A stretch of 64,000 nt of DNA from Bacteroidales bacterium (GCA_016935355.1 JAFGRC010000024.1:2795-66794), one strand, 5' to 3'; shown: positions 1 to 8,889, numbered from the stretch's first letter. A program made the numbers and translations. The notes: generated from the sequence alone by a model not told the origin.

Positions 1-485
1 AACTTTATATAAATCAGATATGTTATCGCATACCATAAAGACCATTTAAGATTCAGCCCTTGTTTCTGGCTATATTCTTCCGCATCCCAATCAATATTTT
101 TCAGATATCCTAATCCATCACTGAATAAAAGTTCCACAGGATAGGGAGCCGGAGTATATGGTTCAGAATAATAATCCGGTGTCAAATATCCCTGCCAATA
201 TAATGAACTATTAATCCATGCTTGTCCCCTGTATTTATATGAATCAGAAGTAAAAAGATCCAGGAAGGCATAATCTGTCTGGCTTTCAATCTGTACTTTG
301 ATATATGATTTTATGATCCGGTCCTCCAATTCATCATCATCCCCCCGGCCTTCCCTGATGCAAGGCCGGGCTGTACCTGTTAATTCAGTTGATGATCCTG
401 AATAATTCTCTTCCTGGATCCTGAATTCACCAGCCCTGTCCAGTATCGTATGGAAGGGAACCGTATATCTTGTGCCGTATGCCAT
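1..485 (-). CDS. Phage structural (tail-type) protein, N-terminal part, runs off the window edge
   Basis: Read manually: ATG at 485, MAYGTRYTVPF...YWQGYLTPDYYSEPY...PYPVELLFSDGLGYLK, open to position 1; resembles Bacteroidota prophage tail-module proteins from recall. Confidence 0.6.
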   Translation of the reverse strand, partial: MAYGTRYTVPFHTILDRAGEFRIQEENYSGSSTELTGTARPCIREGRGDDDELEDRIIKSYIKVQIESQTDYAFLDLFTSDSYKYRGQAWINSSLYWQGYLTPDYYSEPYTPAPYPVELLFSDGLGYLKNIDWDAEEYSQKQGLNLKWSLWYAITYLIYIK

Positions 486-504
486 GATTGTAAAATTTTA
501 ATGT

Positions 505-1017
505 TTATGGTTTCTCTTTATTCTCCAAATACTCTCTGAATTTTGATTTGGTTTCCTTCATTGGAATATGAATATTCTGGGCAGACGAAGGACTTAAACC
601 GAATTCTGCAGCTAATAACCGGGCTTGTTTTAAACATTCAATTGAATATCTTGTCAGCCCGTGCATTCTGATATCAATTATTTTCCGGTCCTGTGGATCC
701 TTCCCCGGATCATCATATTTAACCAGGATATGTTTTTTGATATCTTCCATTTCTATTTCACATTCATAGTGCGATCCAGCAAAAAAGCAGTACATGAAAA
801 ACATATGAATGTTTAAACGATTAATTATACCCATAATAAGCAGTCTGTTACCAATTTCATAATAAATCTGTTTGTGGATCTCCCGGAAGTGATCCGGGGG
901 ATCCGGGAGCTGTTGAAGTGATTCACATTGCAAATGATTCTTTGGAATTCTGCATTTTTGCATCGTCCCCCTTAATTTTTTCACCTCAATAGGTAAACTT
1001 TTTTTGCCTCTCTTCAT
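505..1017 (-). CDS. terS: Phage terminase small subunit, P27 family
   Basis: N-terminal RGKKSLPIEVKKLRGT, PDPP, and C-terminal AAEFGLSPSS motifs typical of P27-family TerS. Confidence 0.85.
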   Translation of the reverse strand: MKRGKKSLPIEVKKLRGTMQKCRIPKNHLQCESLQQLPDPPDHFREIHKQIYYEIGNRLLIMGIINRLNIHMFFMYCFFAGSHYECEIEMEDIKKHILVKYDDPGKDPQDRKIIDIRMHGLTRYSIECLKQARLLAAEFGLSPSSAQNIHIPMKETKSKFREYLENKEKP

Positions 1018-1039
1018 AATATAAAAACTATGTTTCTAA

Positions 1040-1130
1040 ATAAATTCTTATTTGCACCTGAAAAATATTGATGAAGCCACCGGTTTCTGGCTGATAGGTT
1101 GGGAGAATTTACCCCCCATACCCCCCTGGA
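1040..1130 (-). other. Putative cos/packaging-site region upstream of terS
   Basis: Minus strand reads GGGGGGTATGGGGGGT (1126-1111) then AAATTCTCC...GAAACCGGTG; G-run motifs in this position are typical of HK97-like 3'-cos phages. Confidence 0.55.
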
Positions 1131-1145
1131 CTAACAATCAAATAG

Positions 1146-1682
1146 TTATACATAGATAACATTATTATATTCATTAACTGGCTCATAATATTTTAATTCA
1201 ACTTCATGAATTTTTGAATTAGTTATTTCCCCAATCCAAACCAGGGAACCAGGATAAGCCGGATCAATACAAGGCCCAACATCAATTAATTGCAGAATAT
1301 TTTTTATGATAAGGACCCGGGATCCCTGCTCATCTTTTGTCCATTCCTGGAGCCTGGGAACATAATCATATTGCAGCGAACTTCCCCTCATCCTTTTGTT
1401 TCTGATATCTGATTCAAACAACCGATTGAATTTTTCCTGCATATATCCATCAATAGTTTTGGCTTCATAATATATCCCTTCCTTCCTGATCAGGATCCGG
1501 ACATCACCAGGATAAGATCCCAATAAACTTTCCCTTTTATCACAATGACTGATAATACATTCAACATGATCCATGTCTGCACAATCCAAGCAATGAGGAT
1601 CCAGGATCACCCGGTAGGATCCTTGGTTGTCATGGTAATAATGACTTTCTTTTGAAAACGGTATATAGCCGGAAATCTTCAT
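1146..1682 (-). CDS. HK97-family prohead protease (peptidase S78), divergent second copy
   Basis: IISH, RGSSLQY, EW, LIDVGPCIDPAYPGS align with LFNH, KGSSFGF, TW, IYDLSPVVFPAYPQT of 2067-2648. Confidence 0.75.
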   Translation of the reverse strand: MKISGYIPFSKESHYYHDNQGSYRVILDPHCLDCADMDHVECIISHCDKRESLLGSYPGDVRILIRKEGIYYEAKTIDGYMQEKFNRLFESDIRNKRMRGSSLQYDYVPRLQEWTKDEQGSRVLIIKNILQLIDVGPCIDPAYPGSLVWIGEITNSKIHEVELKYYEPVNEYNNVIYV

Positions 1683-1710
1683 TTTTAGACACGATATTTG
1701 TTAAGTGATA

Positions 1711-2070
1711 TCATACCATTACTTTTACTCGTTTCTGCTTCCCTGTGGACATTTTTGACTTGCGGGTATCAAATATATTCCCATCAATATAGTTGCTGAG
1801 GACTTCATCTTTAAATATTGCTGTCATGCACTTTTCAAATTTATCCTGACCAAATAATTCATTACCGATTATTGATTCCCCAAAAGTGATTTCTCTGCCT
1901 TCAATGACAATATTTTCATTTAAAGGCTTGCTGATCCTCCCGGTTTCATAACCGATGATCCTGCCATCCTGCTCATTACAATAAAGTTCAGCAAAGTACC
2001 TGGTACCTGACTTTTCAAGGATAAGATACCTCACATCGTTTTTAATAAATTCTGTTGGCAGTGTTTTCAT
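1711..2070 (-). CDS. Phage hypothetical protein
   Basis: 119-aa ORF with 4-bp overlap to the upstream protease gene. Confidence 0.65.
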   Translation of the reverse strand: MKTLPTEFIKNDVRYLILEKSGTRYFAELYCNEQDGRIIGYETGRISKPLNENIVIEGREITFGESIIGNELFGQDKFEKCMTAIFKDEVLSNYIDGNIFDTRKSKMSTGKQKRVKVMV

Positions 2071-2648
2071 GATAACTTGTATTTATAAAGATCCAACTCC
2101 CTTTGCTTATGCAGCCAATATCTCCGGATCCTGTCGGCCTCTGCAGGATTAAACCTTTTCAAAGAATTCAGGTTTATAGATGTTTGCGGATAGGCCGGAA
2201 ACACAACCGGGCTCAAATCATAGATCCTTTCAAATTTTTTGATCCTCCGTTCCCAAGTGCCATCTTCCCTTTTATTCCATGTATCGCCATCAGATGCAAC
2301 CTTAAATCCGAATGAAGATCCTTTGATATCTTTTCGGCTGATACCTTCCTTAACACGTTCACCAATTGAAGTAACGGGAAGATCCACAATGTACCGGACC
2401 CCTGCTGCAGTAATTTGAATATCCATTGTTACAGGATAACGGCCCAGGATATAATCCGTATTATGATTAAACAGGCTTGTTACATCAGTCCAGTTCAGGT
2501 CCCGGACTGATTCCGGCAATATCATTTCAATAAACCCTCCCAGGTTTTTGCTCCATTTGTTGAAAACAATGCCAAGTCCCTGAATTATCCGGGAATCTTT
2601 TTTAAGTTCCAAACCTTGTACATACCGCCTTTCAATTTCCTCTTTCAT
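2067..2648 (-). CDS. HK97-family prohead protease (peptidase S78)
   Basis: G-IVFN-S-NLGGFIE, LFNHN (His), GSSFGF (Ser), DLSPVVFPAY. Confidence 0.92.
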   Translation of the reverse strand: MKEEIERRYVQGLELKKDSRIIQGLGIVFNKWSKNLGGFIEMILPESVRDLNWTDVTSLFNHNTDYILGRYPVTMDIQITAAGVRYIVDLPVTSIGERVKEGISRKDIKGSSFGFKVASDGDTWNKREDGTWERRIKKFERIYDLSPVVFPAYPQTSINLNSLKRFNPAEADRIRRYWLHKQRELDLYKYKLS

Positions 2649-2649
2649 C

Positions 2650-3012
2650 TTAATTTGTATATTTGATTAATTCATCAATGTTGTTTATCCTTATGAAATC
2701 GTTGTATATTTCAATTCCGGTACCTGCTGTCATGCATTGCAGTTTTTTTTTATAACCGTCTGATAGTTTCAAATACTGTGCTGTAACTTTCTCAATCTCA
2801 TAAGGACGTAAGGATAAAATTCCAGCATCCTGTAAATCCAGAAAAAATGACTGAAAACTTACTGGCCGGAAGGATAAACTTTCTGTATGGTAAACCCCGT
2901 TTCGCTCAATAACTTTCTTTCCATTGATAACCAGGGTATCACTGAAAGGGCTGTTTGCTATCTCCCGTTCAATGACTTTATTTATTGCCGTTGCCAATAG
3001 ATTTAAATTCAT
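2650..3012 (-). CDS. Phage hypothetical protein
   Basis: 120-aa ORF in a tightly packed operon. Confidence 0.6.
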   Translation of the reverse strand: MNLNLLATAINKVIEREIANSPFSDTLVINGKKVIERNGVYHTESLSFRPVSFQSFFLDLQDAGILSLRPYEIEKVTAQYLKLSDGYKKKLQCMTAGTGIEIYNDFIRINNIDELIKYTN

Positions 3013-3176
3013 GATGCTTTGTATATACTAATTAAACACTGGTATTGTCGTTCACTTAATGATCCGGTTTGCTGATACCACCTTTGCAAAGATTTTATAA
3101 ACTTGATCTGTGGATCTGAAAGATCCTGGTTCAATGCCTGTTTGAATATTTCTATTATCTCGTCCTTCTGTTTCAT
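3009..3176 (-). CDS. Small phage hypothetical protein (55 aa, MKQKDEIIEIF...LSERQYQCLISIYKAS)
   Basis: Read manually, below the ORF-track cutoff; fills the gap and has an ATGA overlap with the next gene. Confidence 0.6.
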   Translation of the reverse strand: MKQKDEIIEIFKQALNQDLSDPQIKFIKSLQRWYQQTGSLSERQYQCLISIYKAS

Positions 3177-3183
3177 ATGGTTA

Positions 3184-3930
3184 TCATTTTACTGTTTGCC
3201 TGGCAATTATTTCACTCATTGACTGTTTATTCCGGTTTTCATCTTTGAACCATACTGATATCATTTGTTGTTTCCAGTTTTTTACTGCCTCACCATTTTT
3301 TTGATGCCAATCAGCAACATCATAATAATTGAAGGCTTTTATTGCCGATTGTTCTGAATATCCGTTCTCTGAAAAAAATTCTTTAATTTGCTGTAATGAA
3401 GGGGGAGTAAATTTTGGTTTTTTCCCTCTTCGTTCTTTACTTTCTTTACATTCTTTACATTCTTTACATTCTTCATTAGTTGCCACTTGTTTGCCACTTG
3501 TTTGCCACTTGTTTGCCACTTGTTTGCCGATTTGTTTGCCAGTTTCATTTTCATCAAGTTGGTATTCCTCCCATTTACAAATAGTTATAAGCCTTCCGGT
3601 CTTTGCCGATTCGTTTGTCAGAAATTTCCACTTTTCTAACTTAATTAATGCCGTTCTGATGTTCTTAATTGTAACATCACGGGCGCATTTTTCCTTTAGT
3701 GATTCCAATGATGTTATAAATTGACCTGGTTGACATTTGAATATTTTTTTATGCCACTCCCATTCATTTTCCTTGAAATTTGCCATTAACAAGCACTGGA
3801 TCATAACATCTCTTTGCTTACTGTTTAATGACCTGTATAATGGACTGTTAATAATCTTTCTATGGATTTTAACCCAGCCTCCGGAATTTTGACTATCTTT
3901 ACCCTCGCTCATTTTTTCTGATTGTTTCAA
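3184..3930 (-). CDS. Phage replication initiator (replisome-organiser/DnaD-like)
   Basis: GWVKIHRKI N-terminus, GQFITS, repeat-encoded linker, C-terminal FTPPSL...FNYY...W...VKNWK domain; start may be 3912. Confidence 0.8.
   Translation of the reverse strand: MKQSEKMSEGKDSQNSGGWVKIHRKIINSPLYRSLNSKQRDVMIQCLLMANFKENEWEWHKKIFKCQPGQFITSLESLKEKCARDVTIKNIRTALIKLEKWKFLTNESAKTGRLITICKWEEYQLDENETGKQIGKQVANKWQTSGKQVATNEECKECKECKESKERRGKKPKFTPPSLQQIKEFFSENGYSEQSAIKAFNYYDVADWHQKNGEAVKNWKQQMISVWFKDENRNKQSMSEIIARQTVK
3433..3545. repeat. Iteron-like tandem repeats inside the rep gene (putative origin)
   Basis: TTCTTTACA 9-mer x3-4 (3433-3477), then TTGCCACTTGT 11-mer x4 plus two degenerate copies (3480-3545). 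Confidence 0.8.
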
Positions 3931-4091
3931 GATTTAGGGGGATCTTCGGATCCCCTTTCCGTTTCAGAAAGATCATGTTCTAATTCCTTCGCCAGATCAT
4001 AATGTCCGGATTTTCGGAGTTCTTTGATCCGGTTAAAGACCAACTCCCGGAGACTTTCGTCTTGTTCAAGTGTCGCATTTTCGTGTTTCAT
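3927..4091 (-). CDS. Small phage hypothetical protein (54 aa, MKHENATLEQDESLRELVFNRIKELRKSGHYDLA...)
   Basis: Read manually; fills the gap between the 298-aa ORF and rep. Confidence 0.5.
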   Translation of the reverse strand: MKHENATLEQDESLRELVFNRIKELRKSGHYDLAKELEHDLSETERGSEDPPKS

Positions 4092-4119
4092 AGTTATAAT
4101 ATATATTGGTAATGATCAT

Positions 4120-5016
4120 TTACTTTGCTTTTTTCGTCTTCTGATACTGTTTCAATGTCCGTTTTTCCTGATCAGATATGGCCCCTTGGCGTTCCAGGAT
4201 CTCGCCTTCGACATCCCCGACTTTTGCCCAGGTAACAGCCGATCCTCCAGAGAAATGGACTTTGCCGGATGCATTTTTAGATTGTTCTAATCTTTTTTTT
4301 GCATTAACACCAAGTTCGACTTCAGATTTTTTCGGAAGTTCCGAATCCAAAATTTTAGTGCTAAAGCCAATCGTTGTCATCTGAGAATCGTAACTTTCAT
4401 TTGCTTTTACCTGTACCAGAAAATCTCGGGGTTCTGCAAAAAATGGCTGGCCTGGCCGTTTAAGATCATGAATCCGCACCATAGTTTCAAACGCCTTCAT
4501 CACTTCAACCACTTTTGGCATTATGGCTGCATAATCCTTTTTAAATTTGTTATCCAGGGAGTATTCGCATTTTTTACCGATGATTTCTTTCATGTCGGGC
4601 CTTAATGAAGGTTCCCCTGTTTTTTCATCATACTGATAACATTCAAAATCGACAAACCCCCGGTAACCATGCACCTCAGAACGTTTTTTCAGTTCAACGA
4701 TATTTTGGGGCATTGCCTGGTTAATTTGCTCATTTAATGTATCAACAGTTGGGAGTTGGGTATCGTCTTTTAGGACAAATAGCGGAAATTCCTTTTGCAA
4801 CTTTTCTCTACTCTTATCAAAAATCACTTTCAACTGTTGATGCATATAAGCACCTCCGAATTTTCTGATTCCTTCGCAATATTTCGCATTGAATAGCGGT
4901 AAATTTGGTTCGGTTTGCCAAACGCTGTATAATGCCAATACCACAGTTAAGTATTGTTCGGTCGTGTGTTCTACCAGGCTGGCCCGGCTTTCGTCAAAAA
5001 AAATTTCATCTTTCAT
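4120..5016 (-). CDS. Hypothetical protein of the element (298 aa)
   Basis: Long ORF co-oriented in the operon; no motif recognised. Confidence 0.7.
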   Translation of the reverse strand: MKDEIFFDESRASLVEHTTEQYLTVVLALYSVWQTEPNLPLFNAKYCEGIRKFGGAYMHQQLKVIFDKSREKLQKEFPLFVLKDDTQLPTVDTLNEQINQAMPQNIVELKKRSEVHGYRGFVDFECYQYDEKTGEPSLRPDMKEIIGKKCEYSLDNKFKKDYAAIMPKVVEVMKAFETMVRIHDLKRPGQPFFAEPRDFLVQVKANESYDSQMTTIGFSTKILDSELPKKSEVELGVNAKKRLEQSKNASGKVHFSGGSAVTWAKVGDVEGEILERQGAISDQEKRTLKQYQKTKKAK

Positions 5017-5020
5017 TTCA

Positions 5021-5368
5021 CTATAGTTTTATGTTTAACTTATTTTTCGCTGATTTCATGACTGATTTTGAAACCGGATCCCCTGTCTTTTTAATTTTGG
5101 ATTGTGCGTAATTTATCAGTTCGGATCTATTAAAAACCAGACGTCTTCCAATCTTTTGCTTTGGCATTTCTACCATGCTTAATTTATAAAACAGGGATTT
5201 AGAAACCGGGCTGCCCCAGGTCTTCTGTAAAAGATCCCGGGCCTCATCTGCATTGATATTAACAGGCAATTTTTCCTTCTCTGGCTGTTGAAGTATCTTT
5301 GATTTCTGAATAGCACTCAGGATTAAGGCCTCAAGTCTTTCCTCAGTAATAACAATAAGTGGTTCCAT
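5021..5368 (-). CDS. Excisionase/AlpA-like helix-turn-helix protein
   Basis: INADEARDLL...SKSLFYKL...PKQKIGRRLVFNRSEL (HTH_17-like). Confidence 0.8.
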   Translation of the reverse strand: MEPLIVITEERLEALILSAIQKSKILQQPEKEKLPVNINADEARDLLQKTWGSPVSKSLFYKLSMVEMPKQKIGRRLVFNRSELINYAQSKIKKTGDPVSKSVMKSAKNKLNIKL

Positions 5369-5450
5369 AATTCACAGCTTTATTTCATGCTGTAAAATTA
5401 CAGTCGCAATACACGAAATGCAAATTTAAAGTGCTGAAAATGATGATTTT

Positions 5451-5487
5451 AGGGTACCTGAGGGTACCTTTCAATTTTGGTACCCTA
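5451..5487. promoter_or_regulatory. Repeated AGGGTACC boxes upstream of the excisionase-like gene
   Basis: AGGGTACC at 5451 and 5461 (10-bp period) and inverted GGTACCCT at 5479. Confidence 0.5.
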
Positions 5488-5491
5488 CTTT

Positions 5492-6364
5492 TTAAACAAT
5501 GAATTCTTTGATATTCAAAGTATTATCCTTTATTCGGTTGGCTGTTTTGAAGATTTTGCCAATGTACCCTGGTTTAGAAGGCCCGTCAGGGAATAAAAAT
5601 GATTCGCTAAAATATTGAATAAGAAACTTTTGATTTATTATTTTCTCTCTTTGCAAAGTATAAATGTCTTTTGCATTAATGAGGCAACCCAAATCCCATA
5701 ATTCTGCAATTACTGAAATAAAATGATTTGCTGGTTTTTTAATTACAATAAGATTTTGTGGTTTTTGACCTTTTAGCCACAATAGAAAATGATTGACTTC
5801 AGATTGATCAAAATACCCGATTTGAGATAAATGGCTTGCCAGGCCAATTGAATACAGTTTACTGGAAATGCCTAATTTTTCAATTTTGAAATAATTTTTT
5901 ATGAACTGGATCTTTGCCCTTAACAGGTGCATTTGGAAGTTAATGTTTAATTTTATTGGTTGTGCATTGCCCTGTATCCTGACAATTTCTGAATCGACCA
6001 GATCCCGGATTTTTCTGTAATCGCTTCCCTTAACGAAATCAACATTTTTTTGTAATAGTGCATTATTCCAATGCCTTATATTTTTTACCCTTTCCTGTTC
6101 CAGTTCTTCAAGTTGTGAATTTAAAAATTCCTTTACATCTTTTGGATCCAGTTTTTCTATAACCTGATCAATAAAAGTCCCGAAACAATGCATATTTATT
6201 TCAACGCCTTTGTCAAAAGCCCATAATCGGGATTCTCTGATCTTATCCAGTTCGGATTTTTTGGGAGGTGCATCATCCAATTTATCAGGGAAATCACCAT
6301 CCCATTCATCATTCAGCCAGGCTGAATGAGCGTATTTATTTTTTAATTTTGCCATCCCCTTCAA
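5492..6364 (-). CDS. Hypothetical protein downstream of the integrase
   Basis: 290-aa ORF overlapping the integrase stop. Confidence 0.7.
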   Translation of the reverse strand: MKGMAKLKNKYAHSAWLNDEWDGDFPDKLDDAPPKKSELDKIRESRLWAFDKGVEINMHCFGTFIDQVIEKLDPKDVKEFLNSQLEELEQERVKNIRHWNNALLQKNVDFVKGSDYRKIRDLVDSEIVRIQGNAQPIKLNINFQMHLLRAKIQFIKNYFKIEKLGISSKLYSIGLASHLSQIGYFDQSEVNHFLLWLKGQKPQNLIVIKKPANHFISVIAELWDLGCLINAKDIYTLQREKIINQKFLIQYFSESFLFPDGPSKPGYIGKIFKTANRIKDNTLNIKEFIV

Positions 6365-7670
6365 ATCTTAGTAGTAATTCGGCATTTTTCTGCCGTTCTT
6401 CTTTTTCAAAACTGTCCAAATAACTTTCAGTAGTCTTTTGATTACTATGACCCAGGGATTCACTAATAAAAGCAATGTTTGTTCCACTTCTTTTTAATAC
6501 GGTTGCGAAACTATGTCTGGCCGTATATGTGCTGATATTTCCATATCCCAAATCCTGGCCAATCTTTGTCAATTTATCATTGATAAGTTTCGTCAAATTC
6601 TTTACTATTCGCTTTTCATCAATTGGAGTTATATCCCCATAAAGGAATGGAAAAATGTAATTTGTTGGTTTCCGATCAGAATTCCCCCATTTTTCAATTA
6701 TCGTTTGCATTTGAGGCAACAATGTTGCTGCTATTTCTTTTTGATCCGGGTTTGTTCTGGTAGTTTTCTTTCTGTAAAACCGGACTTCACTATCTTTGAT
6801 ATTTGAATACCGTAAACGTAAAAGGTCATTAACGCTTATGCCATTACACAAATACATGAAAAGCCATAGATCCCTACATTTTCTCTCTGTTTCAGTTACT
6901 AATGGATATTTAAGAACTTCATCAATCTGCGATAATGATAATGCCATTTTCCGGCCGGTCCAGTTTTGGATCTTAAATTTATCTTTCCCTTTGCCAAAAG
7001 GATATTCAGCATTTGTGATCACATCTTCTTCTTTTGCATCATTCATAATTGCACGTATGGCACGCATATACATTGAAATTGTTGTACGGCTTTTATCTTC
7101 TTCAATCAAAAAATTTTCATACTTCTGTAACCAGGTTTTATTAATATCAGAAAATTTCAAGTCTTTAATTATGAATTTTTCTATGTTTTTAACAGTACAT
7201 AAATACCACCCTGCAGTTCCAACTTGCCCGTTTTTATTTAACTTTTCTATCTTATTATAAAAGGCTGTTAATATACTGTTCTGCATTCCCCGGCTTAATC
7301 TTGCATTCAATTTATCATAAGAAAAGTTTCCATTTTTAATTAAAGCAATGATGTGGCTTTTAATGCCGTCAAATCCTAATTGAATTAACCCCTTTTGCTC
7401 CAGCAGGTCTTTTTTTCGTGTTGTTGTCATAGCATACCATTCATTTAATGATAAATCAACTCCTGCATTATAATAAACCTGTTTACGCTTATGAGTAACC
7501 CGAAATTTAACATTATAAAGCCCATTGGTTTTTTTTCGCCTGGTATCAAAAACTATTGATAAAATAACCCCGGCTTTAGAATAATTTTCTGATACAAGCA
7601 TTTTAGGCTCATCATTTTTCTGAAAAGATTTCTTTGTCATTACGTATGAAAATTTTTTTTGAGCATACAA
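6336..7670 (-). CDS. int: Tyrosine recombinase/integrase, Bacteroidota type
   Basis: Arm-binding N-terminus, SAM-like domain, YTARHSFAT, LGHS, TESY catalytic motifs; true start probably 7640 or 7601. Confidence 0.95.
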   Translation of the reverse strand: MYAQKKFSYVMTKKSFQKNDEPKMLVSENYSKAGVILSIVFDTRRKKTNGLYNVKFRVTHKRKQVYYNAGVDLSLNEWYAMTTTRKKDLLEQKGLIQLGFDGIKSHIIALIKNGNFSYDKLNARLSRGMQNSILTAFYNKIEKLNKNGQVGTAGWYLCTVKNIEKFIIKDLKFSDINKTWLQKYENFLIEEDKSRTTISMYMRAIRAIMNDAKEEDVITNAEYPFGKGKDKFKIQNWTGRKMALSLSQIDEVLKYPLVTETERKCRDLWLFMYLCNGISVNDLLRLRYSNIKDSEVRFYRKKTTRTNPDQKEIAATLLPQMQTIIEKWGNSDRKPTNYIFPFLYGDITPIDEKRIVKNLTKLINDKLTKIGQDLGYGNISTYTARHSFATVLKRSGTNIAFISESLGHSNQKTTESYLDSFEKEERQKNAELLLRFEGDGKIKK

Positions 7671-7805
7671 TTTTCATACAAATATAGAAATTAAATGAAA
7701 ATACAGGAATTTAAATGAATGAAATTTATCAACAAATATGTTGATAATCAGGATAGTTAATGGTGAATTGAATTTTTATGAATATGCCTGAATTTAAGCA
7801 AATTA

Positions 7806-7850
7806 TGCTTTGGGAGCAGGTGGTCGCCAGTTCGAGTCTGGCCACCCCGA
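7806..7850 (+). other. att site: 3' half of tRNA-Pro(TGG); not an intact tRNA
   Basis: TGC-TTTGGGA-GCAGG anticodon arm, T-arm GCCAG-TTCGAGT-CTGGC and acceptor 3' strand CACCCCGA present; D-arm and 5' strand absent upstream. Confidence 0.88.
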
Positions 7851-7904
7851 CTTTATTTAAAATAAGGTCTTATAAATAAAATACTTACAAGGCTTTTTTT
7901 ATCG

Positions 7905-8080: not shown

Positions 8081-8794
8081 ATGGCTACCACAAAGGACGA
8101 AATAGAACTTATCATTCAGGAAGGAGAAGGTTATCGCATTGAATTTAAAGAACGCCTTACGAACCTTGACCGTGAAATGGTTGCTTTTGCAAATGGTTAG
8201 GGCGACAGAATTTTCATAGGCATTACAGATGATGGTCGCAAAGTCGGATTTCGTGCCCCAAATGATGTAAAATCGCAAATCCAGGATATTGTCAATAATT
8301 GTGATCCACAGATAAAAATCATCATTCAACAGGTTAAAGATGTTTTGGTTGTTGAAGTTCGTGAAGGAACCGATAAACCCTATAAATGTGCAACTGGTTT
8401 TTCTAATCGTATTGGGCCAAATTCAATGAAATTATCAAGAGATGAAATTGTTGAATTTGTCAAGTCAGAAAGGAAGATTCGCTTTGACGAAATGATTAAT
8501 AAACAATTTACTTCTAATGATTTCTCAATAGAAAAATTAAGTTCATTCCTGCAGCAAGCTGGTATTTCGCAGGTATTACCAATGCCGCAAATAATTAAAA
8601 ATCTAGGAGCCGGTGATGTTGAAGCGGGTCAAATTGCTTATAATAATACTGCAGTATTGTTTTTTGCTAAAAATTTGAGCAGTCATTATTTTCTAACTGC
8701 GGTTACTTGTGCATTATATAAGGGAAACGAGAAAGTAACCATACTTGACCGAAAGGATTTTAACGAAGATCTGATTTCGAAAACTTATACATGA
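8081..8794 (+). pseudogene. AlbA_2/Schlafen-domain DNA-binding protein (RecG-annotated family), disrupted
   Basis: MATTKDEIELIIQEGEGYRIEFKE...VAFANG*GDRIFIGITDDG; in-frame TAG at 8198 then continues into ORF 8345-8794; C-terminus truncated. Confidence 0.8.
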
Positions 8795-8889
8795 ATGTGA
8801 TTGCTGAACGTTAAAATGAAGAATGTAATTTAATTATTCTTTATTTTTATTTCATTTCAGGTACTCAGAGTGACTTAAATTGAATAAAA

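Follow-up and report, generated by a model that had tools for sequence, protein, structure and literature searches.

A probable helper-dependent phage satellite with two prohead proteases, a small terminase and a tail gene in a Bacteroidales genome

We analyzed a stretch of 64,000 nucleotides from a Bacteroidales bacterium (GCA_016935355.1 JAFGRC010000024.1:2795-66794; G000:C133:2795-66794 in our numbering), hereafter the window. The first 7.85 kb of the window are the right-hand part of an island, E1, that measures 12,101 bp between its two attachment (att) cores and is probably a helper-dependent satellite, resembling the phage-inducible chromosomal islands (PICIs), of an HK97-like siphovirus of Bacteroidota. 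Its only virion or packaging genes code for the small subunit of terminase (TerS), two S78 prohead proteases, and one tail protein. An initial annotation of the window had proposed a satellite from a compact one-directional module running from a fragment of tRNA-Pro, with an integrase, a replication gene with iterons, two proteases, a G-run, TerS, and a tail-type gene. Pfam and PHROGs matches and repeat scans confirmed all of these components, and the one-strand open reading frames (ORFs) and an exact 46-nt copy of tRNA-Pro(tgg) bear out the layout. Extending the sequence leftwards to the intact tRNA-Pro gave an element of 12.1 kb, which is thus not a prophage of 30–50 kb. The gene order also lies beyond what deletion can produce: the proteases stand upstream of terS, the reverse of the order in two phages with related genes (the prophage L116 and the siphovirus contig L029), and a sister island in the same genome, E2, keeps the same repertoire. 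Because its size is not that of a complete prophage and its gene order is not explained by deletions, E1 supports the satellite architecture.

We determined the boundaries of E1 in the source assembly, a sediment metagenome bin of 173 contigs that is 94% complete. At the right end, the core of attR is identical to the 3' part of tRNA-Pro(tgg) over 46 nt; ARAGORN detected no whole tRNA in the window. The adjoining contig carries the intact tRNA-Pro(tgg), which constitutes attL, at C135:1561-1635, ~4.3 kb to the left of where the window begins. Past this tRNA gene, C135 ends in 58 nt that exactly overlap the start of C133, the sole such pair among 346 oriented contig ends, and an ORF for a coiled-coil protein continues in frame over the joint. 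The G+C content of E1 is 35.4%, versus 42.7% for the genome. Between window positions 1 and 7670, every sizeable ORF lies on the minus strand, stop and start codons overlap in several instances, and 95.6% of the sequence is coding, with all ORFs intact. Next to attR, GTATGAAAAT forms an inverted pair, and extra copies are present at 7113 and, on C135, at two places 40–70 bp from attL. Five of the 32 copies in the genome are at the two ends of E1, a placement like that of arm-type recombinase sites, for which these copies are candidates. Taken together, these results make it very likely that E1 is an intact, site-specifically integrated mobile island. An empty attB was not found in the tRNA-Pro neighborhoods of six congeners, which lack synteny to the right flank of the window.

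The two proteases differ markedly from each other. The 193-aa enzyme is close to phage proteases; the 178-aa paralogue is ~25% identical to the L029 protease and has insertions and a different C-terminal tail. Both E1 paralogues retain the His and Ser motifs. An alignment of seven S78 sequences (the E1 and E2 copies and three phage or island proteases) shows the His in six of them, and within the GSS motif the second Ser is invariant; we take these motifs to be the catalytic residues of S78 enzymes. The last 17 residues of the 178-aa protease are identical to those of its E2 copy, versus an overall identity of 57%. There are phage proteases that ride into proheads by means of their own C-termini, and the conserved tail may, by this analogy, be a docking segment. 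A search with the 178-aa protease returned the E1 and E2 copies only; the 12 loci returned when a genome collection was scanned with it were all ordinary S78 genes with 24–37% identity. A PDB sequence search with the protease gave nothing under an E-value of 0.65.

The TerS of E1 matched only one of 401 Bacteroidota genomes, the source genome itself. It has no relatives in cultured-phage records and five in IMG/VR, at 29% identity. Upstream of terS lies a G-run motif with a counterpart at a similar place in E2. The 2.83-Mb genome contains the pattern G5+..GGTAAA(A)TTC at two places, each upstream of a terS, and 1.47 Mb of other loci do not contain it; since the pattern was built from those two sites, the count is post hoc. 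The G-run is a candidate packaging (cos/pac) or regulatory site.

No gene for the large terminase subunit (TerL), a portal, a capsid protein, an HNH nuclease, head-tail connectors, or lysis was detected by Pfam and PHROGs in the 12.1 kb of E1. The lack of capsid, portal, and TerL noted in the initial annotation thus holds for the whole bounded island and, as far as PF05065, PF04860, and PF03354 are concerned, for the whole assembly, where these families had no match. We also compared the two conserved ORFan pairs with a major capsid protein profile from related phages; hhalign gave a probability of 0.1–0.2%, arguing against a hidden capsid gene.

The tail gene extends out of the window and ends 1,429 bases to its left. 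Its 637-aa product is intact, matches virion-structural PHROGs, and aligns over residues 1-636, that is, at full length, with a phage homologue. We found nine relatives (itself counted) in a large protein collection, 93 IMG/VR stretches, and 20 metagenome loci. Among 100 loci whose neighborhoods were compared (80 of the 93 IMG/VR stretches kept, plus the 20 metagenome loci), 15 have a gene related to the 193-aa protease as well. Single-protein IMG/VR scans with the 637-aa protein or with the 298-aa ORFan of E1 (hyp298) gave no match. In L029, from a contig of 37.5 kb, the genes run in the order portal, S78 protease, major head protein, neck and tail genes, and tape measure; the homologue comes directly after the tape-measure gene and is itself followed by three large ORFs. 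In Flavobacterium phage 11b (36 kb), it belongs to the tail module, roughly after the tape-measure gene. The AlphaFold2 (AF2) model of the 637-aa protein was poor (mean predicted local distance difference test score, pLDDT, 51.9; ~70 for residues 1-255). Nothing in the PDB matched it at E <= 1e-3, where carbohydrate-binding modules and baseplate proteins led the weak rows, and it had 69 matches at E <= 1e-3 in BFVD, including a structural protein of Cellulophaga phage phi12:1 and annotated tail proteins. Compared with its three closest relatives, the ends of the protein reach 75% identity, and residues ~320-480 only 12–35%. The protein is likely a tail-tip or distal-tail component and might have a Dit-type fold.

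We located E2 by tblastn of the E1 proteins against the genome. Its two halves lie at the ends of contigs C42 and C1. The first half encodes, in order, an integrase, a 299-aa ORFan, an HTH_17/excisionase-like protein, a 275-aa ORFan, a 56-aa ORF, a DnaD-like initiator, a DnaC-like loader, a 95-aa ORF, and the S78 paralogue. After the contig break follow a cut ORF of 73 aa, a 60-aa ORF, the G-run, TerS, two small ORFs, and a further S78-like gene, which scores 22.5 bits against a cut-off of 21. More small ORFs, including a 130-aa relative of a 116-aa ORF of E1, fill the remainder up to tRNA-Arg(tct). E1 and E2 have 10 families in common, with 19–61% protein identity and an order that is mostly kept. 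No capsid, portal, or TerL gene was detected in the recovered E2 sequence.

E2 bears directly on one alternative, namely that E1 is the decaying, immobile remnant of an HK97-like prophage in which deletions and rearrangement left int, a replication gene, a protease, terS, and a tail gene. All four virion and packaging genes of E1 do have homologues in ordinary Bacteroidota siphoviruses, the arrangement of E1 was seen in no other genome searched, and a broken AlbA_2 gene on the flank shows that there is decayed DNA nearby. However, the 46-bp att repeats are exact, the ORFs are all intact in densely coding DNA, and the tail gene has the full length of its phage homologue. The protease is duplicated, and the strongly diverged copy was nevertheless kept between E1 and E2. 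The order protease-protease-terS-tail cannot be reached by deletion alone from the order TerS-TerL-portal-protease-major capsid protein, followed further on by tape-measure and tail genes. Finally, E2 carries the same selective gene set in spite of its divergence. Because two diverged islands keep the same odd set of phage genes, random or simple prophage decay is unlikely.

The satellite reading of E1 also draws on its integration and replication genes. The integrase is of a Bacteroidota type. The 115-aa protein, which the initial annotation had called an AlpA/excisionase-like helix-turn-helix (HTH) protein, is below the HTH_17 cut-off and has no Phage_AlpA match; its positional counterpart in E2 passes HTH_17 with 32.1 bits and matches phrog_66 (excisionase) at 1.4e-6. 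For the E1 protein, the HTH_17 assignment is only probable. The replication initiator is DnaD-like or lambda-O-like, and the iteron-like repeats within its gene are a candidate replication origin. None of the ORFs contains a primase or helicase domain according to Pfam, PHROGs, and NCBIfam. The features of E1 and the location of E2 are collected in Table 1.

Table 1. Features of island E1, in window coordinates, and location of the two halves of E2
Feature	Position	Strand	Evidence and remarks
637-aa tail protein, N-terminal 161 codons	1..485 (window ORF 3-485)	-	Whole gene C133:1366-3279
TerS, P27/Terminase_4 type, 170 aa	505..1017	-	PF05119 25.8 bits (cut-off 24.7); phrog_83 2.5e-17
G-run motif G6-TAT-G6-TAAATTC (candidate site)	1105..1126	-	88 nt upstream of terS; counterpart 70 nt upstream of E2 terS
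Second, divergent S78 protease paralogue, 178 aa	1146..1682	-	PF04586 31.5 bits (cut-off 21)
ORFan, 119 aa, between both proteases	1711..2070	-	No family assignment
S78 prohead serine protease, 193 aa	2067..2648	-	PF04586 1.5e-32, 113.4 bits (cut-off 21); 44% identical to L029 siphovirus protease
ORFan, 120 aa, upstream of protease	2650..3012	-	47-49% identical to E2 ORF
55-aa ORF	3009..3176	-	50% identical to E2 ORF just upstream of E2 terS
Replication initiator, DnaD-like/lambda-O-like, 248 aa	3184..3930	-	phrog_2514 4.3e-26; phrog_345 1.4e-4
Iteron-like tandem repeats within initiator gene	3433..3541		9 bp x4.6 + 11 bp x5.5
54-aa ORF	3927..4091	-	57% identical to E2 ORF, same position
ORFan, 298 aa (hyp298)	4120..5016	-	Kept in E2, 32-33% identity
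115-aa probable HTH_17 (Xis/AlpA-type) DNA-binding protein	5021..5368	-	Sub-threshold: E 0.12, 13.1 bits, cut-off 27
ORFan, 290 aa (hyp290)	5492..6364	-	Overlaps integrase stop; E2 counterpart 27% identical
Tyrosine integrase, 444 aa	6336..7670	-	PF13102 1.8e-19; PF00589 1.4e-12; Bacteroidota-type SAM_5 + arm-binding N-terminus
Candidate arm-type recombinase sites	7644..7719		GTATGAAAAT inverted pair at 7644 + 7670; 19-bp tandem repeat 7680-7719
attR core	7806..7851	+	Exact 46-nt repeat of tRNA-Pro(tgg) 3' part
E2 halves	C42:51539-57820 (L003 5540-11821); C1:25403-28761 (L004 5404-8762)		tblastn

The ORFans of E1 gave few leads. A single-query search with hyp298 returned only itself, and a profile of its E1 and E2 copies, searched against 1.84 billion representative proteins, only both copies. 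An Atlas match of hyp298 to DUF3114 (score 0.88) was uninformative, and its AF2 model (pLDDT 41.6) was unusable. The language-model look-alikes of hyp290 are hypothetical proteins of Bacteroidota (DUF6617, DUF6043), which serve as a lead only. NCBIfam gave sub-threshold noise for the ORFans, and PADLOC no passing family save for a marginal PDDEXK match on the HTH protein.

The left arm of E1, 4.3 kb to the left of the window, contains the rest of the 637-aa gene, ORFs of 105, 81, 116, and 153 aa, and the coiled-coil ORF; Pfam and PHROGs detected no TerL, portal, capsid, or lysis gene in it. The 81-aa ORF has relatives in phage loci, including one in prophage L116, where it separates the presumed genes for TerL and portal. 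The 105-aa ORF has a very weak GIY-YIG match and the 153-aa ORF very weak HEPN matches, both far under the cut-offs. An arm of this kind next to the tRNA resembles the defense cargo of satellites and defense islands, and E1 contains no more than isolated parts of the assembly pathways, as would be expected if the island were an integrative element for anti-phage interference only, whose decoy TerS, proteases, and tail hub poison phage assembly and which is itself unpackaged. Yet the HEPN-like and GIY-YIG-like matches fall far short of the cut-offs, and no PADLOC family passes beyond the marginal PDDEXK. Moreover, the island's own initiator and iterons, together with the site conserved upstream of terS, better fit an element that is replicated and packaged. 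Pure interference is therefore quite unlikely.

If E1 is a satellite, which phage helps it? Counterparts of its TerS, 193-aa protease, 81-aa ORF, and tail protein are all found in HK97-like siphoviruses on contigs that reach ~36–37 kb, which, where a host or source is named, come mostly from Bacteroidota. By this homology, HK97-like Bacteroidota siphoviruses are the probable helper lineage. Judged by the order of its genes and the sizes of its ORFs, L116, from a Bacteroidales metagenome-assembled genome (MAG), is an ordinary prophage: it encodes TerS, a 522-aa ORF, a small ORF, a 421-aa ORF, the protease, and a 477-aa ORF. Its TerS and protease are assigned by homology to E1, and the roles of the 522-aa (TerL), 421-aa (portal), and 477-aa (capsid) ORFs from position and size only. 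We searched the genome with all ORFs of at least 100 aa from 12 phage contigs, prophage L116, and an island, L117, described below (14 loci in total); the structural matches were protease, TerS, and tail genes only. As to the distribution of E1, 2 of 61 related genomes gave a match, namely the source genome and one weak match at 4.6e-4.

We examined how E1 is represented in sequencing runs. One run, from a sediment metagenome, contains 99% of the sampled words and is probably the source; ~56% of it was read, as contigs, with 90% likeness allowed. From the terS region rightwards, contigs of this run cover E1 at about 22–42x. Here the contigs listed, which reach past attR, lie almost without a break one after another at 24–34x, with overlaps at 3397-3422 and 6293-6303 and a gap at 3916-3978, and a single contig of 4,337 nt covers window positions 3499-7835. 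Loose contig ends at the att core stem from another tRNA-Pro and have no bearing on excision. A run from another study (X2) contains near-identical pieces only (L001 9865-10465, 10600-10644, 11189-11443, and 11681-11872); the uncovered rest is uninformative. No RNA run with island sequence was listed.

These data also bear on the possibility that E1 is an assembly or binning chimera, in which phage fragments of different populations were joined, so that no single cell would contain such an island. The 173-contig origin of the assembly from a sediment metagenome would allow for such an artifact, and cover of 0–1.7 inside the tail gene, together with a contig that joins 1413 to 3207, fits it. 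However, the near-continuous contigs from the terS region to beyond attR, including the 4,337-nt contig, fit one element, as do the att repeat, the in-frame ORF over the 58-nt overlap, and the even G+C content. Doubt is thus limited to the tail gene, and a chimera is very unlikely.

Several observations weigh against a satellite. E1 has no AlpA or Pri-Rep homologue, its Xis-like assignment is sub-threshold, and its tail gene is untypical for satellites. In the source run, cover is just 0–1.7 over L001 (C133) positions 1601-3200, within the 637-aa gene, against about 12–42 in the other island bins, and one contig with a depth of 19.9 joins L001 1413 to 3207 (window -1381 to 413), its shorter side being only 30 letters long; this is a weak hint that many copies may lack the tail gene or have a divergent allele in its place. 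Excision, a circular form, or packaging left no evidence in these data, in which the source contigs merely break at the att repeat. No helper phage was found in the assembly, a negative of little weight for a binned metagenome, from which prophages frequently drop out. Outside this genome, the databases searched contain no relatives of the island-specific genes, and the family consists of two islands from one binned 173-contig assembly. As to E2, its halves lie on contigs without mutual overlap, and no att repeat was found for it (no repeat of tRNA-Arg and no common direct repeat >12 nt).

We nevertheless consider a helper-dependent satellite the most probable explanation of E1, and it would work as follows. 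When a helper siphovirus infects or is induced, E1 would excise by means of Int and the HTH_17 protein and replicate from its iterons. Its TerS would bind the G-run site upstream of terS and recruit the TerL of the helper, so that island DNA is packaged. Both protease paralogues could enter helper proheads and alter or pre-empt their maturation; the conserved C-terminal tail of the island-specific protease may dock on the helper capsid protein, the other copy being phage-like. The genome of E1 is one third the size of the helper's, which would suggest redirection to small capsids. The tail-tip protein, with its hypervariable center, may join helper tails and set adsorption specificity. We infer these roles of the proteases, the G-run, and the tail protein in the satellite cycle from homology and gene position.

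The integration locus has features of its own. Directly right of attR lies an ORF with an AlbA_2/Schlafen domain (8081-8797, plus strand; PF04326, 33.1 bits) that is broken by one in-frame TAG at 8198-8200. A GT/GTGAGT-rich simple repeat is found immediately upstream of tRNA-Pro (C135; L002 1636-1750), and related repeats are present on several other contigs. In one congener (G016:C6; L138 55-1987), the locus that corresponds to the insertion site of E1 contains, according to ARAGORN, 12 tandem tRNA-Pro(tgg) genes or gene-like copies with a period of ~152 bp. In another congener (G002:C13; L135 6991-7113), an integrase-like match lies ~1.2 kb from tRNA-Pro(tgg). The tRNA-Pro(tgg) gene may also serve as an integration site for other elements of the genus. 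The left flank of E2 carries arsenic-resistance-like genes.

How does E1 relate to known satellites? In the 2023 census of ~5,000 satellites by de Sousa et al., mostly from Proteobacteria and Firmicutes, the definition of a PICI comprises an integrase, a regulator, a primase-replicase, a capsid-morphogenesis component, and TerS, five in all, and >99.9% of the PICIs detected are in those two phyla (PMC10085698). E1 has an integrase at one end with site-specific integration, marked by the 46-bp att repeats, and a small terminase. For the regulator (alpA, merR, or stl), it offers only the 115-aa protein, whose HTH_17 match scores 13.1 bits against a cut-off of 27. A primase-replicase of the PICI family is missing, its place being taken by the DnaD/lambda-O-like initiator, so that E1 has a replication function of its own. 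For capsid morphogenesis, it has the two S78 proteases but lacks a homologue of the capsid or scaffold proteins on which the published PICI model relies.

Like the Gram-negative PICIs of the EcCICFT073 type, which are 10–15 kb long, E1 integrates site-specifically and has its own TerS. In both, int, regulator (in E1 only a probable one), and replication genes run in one direction and are followed by packaging and, in E1 putatively, capsid-interference genes (PMC10085698). Unlike them, E1 resides in Bacteroidota, replicates with a DnaD/lambda-O-like initiator in place of a primase-replicase, has no AlpA, Stl, or MerR that passes the cut-off, and encodes two S78 proteases and a tail gene. No tail-tip gene is reported for the satellite families compared in the census (PMC10085698). 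With capsid-forming PICIs (cf-PICIs), E1 shares an HK97-lineage prohead protease and TerS; cf-PICIs, in contrast, carry a complete head and packaging set, which includes the major capsid protein, the portal, TerL, HNH, and the head-tail connectors, and depend on the helper for tails only (PMC10690885, PMC13230959). E1 also differs from cf-PICIs by its tail gene.

The initial annotation had held that the combination matches no satellite class known to its author. This goes somewhat too far: a PICI-like element of Vibrio that encodes a homologue of capsid protein E, a protease, and a small terminase has been published (PMC13230959). This element, TG93, a PICI-like plasmid satellite of Vibrio crassostreae, resembles E1 in having a head-maturation protease and a small terminase without a portal or TerL. 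It differs by being a plasmid, by the lack of an integrase, and by its capsid protein E homologue and MerR regulator (PMC13230959). E1, compared with TG93, is integrated and has two proteases and a tail protein but no capsid homologue. Some marine virion-encapsidated integrative mobile elements (VEIMEs), which have no capsid genes and are packaged as concatemers, also carry TerS or serine proteases (PMC9618062).

An island in another Bacteroidota MAG, L117 (JAUZOO010000002.1, 700-13400), is also comparable. Like E1, it is small (~12.4 kb) and ends at a tRNA gene, tRNA-Arg(tct); its integrase is 38–39% identical to that of E1, and its other genes include one homologous to that of the 115-aa HTH protein, one for a replication initiator, and one for an S78 protease. 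Unlike E1, it encodes a 329-aa homologue of major head proteins, a second integrase-like gene, and a 687-aa protein with weak tape-measure-like matches. No TerS, second protease, or 637-aa tail protein was detected in it, and no portal or TerL was found among the ORFs scanned. L117 may be another candidate type of satellite.

Do E1 and E2 then form a class of their own? They could represent a new class of Bacteroidota satellites that has no capsid or scaffold homologue, in which the diverged protease, targeted by its conserved C-terminal tail, reprograms helper proheads and an own tail-tip hub with a hypervariable center sets the host range, directing particles with satellite DNA to hosts that suit the satellite. 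We regard this reading as rather doubtful. If it were true, a satellite would edit its helper in two respects, the head, possibly with small capsids that fit 12 kb, and the host range. Our literature search found no paper that unites satellite, prohead protease, small terminase, and PICI. Among the matches listed, no title or abstract describes a characterized Bacteroidota satellite; supplements of the cited papers may list similar elements.

The value of the present case is limited in that the family so far comes from one metagenome-derived genome, without a helper phage. If E1 is mobile, satellites with a different tool-kit exist in Bacteroidota, prohead proteases alone can act as a capsid-hijacking module, and tail-tip genes can be part of a satellite. 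Experiments have concrete handles in the att core, the iterons, the G-run site, and the two proteases with their mutable predicted catalytic motifs.

The S. aureus pathogenicity islands (SaPIs) remodel capsids through CpmA and CpmB and have a divergent Stl repressor; to our knowledge, they encode no protease or tail gene. E1 works most like a PICI or SaPI, yet we do not file it as a member of either. Its novelty is in the two S78 proteases that stand in place of a capsid or scaffold homologue, in the tail-tip gene, and in the Bacteroidota host.

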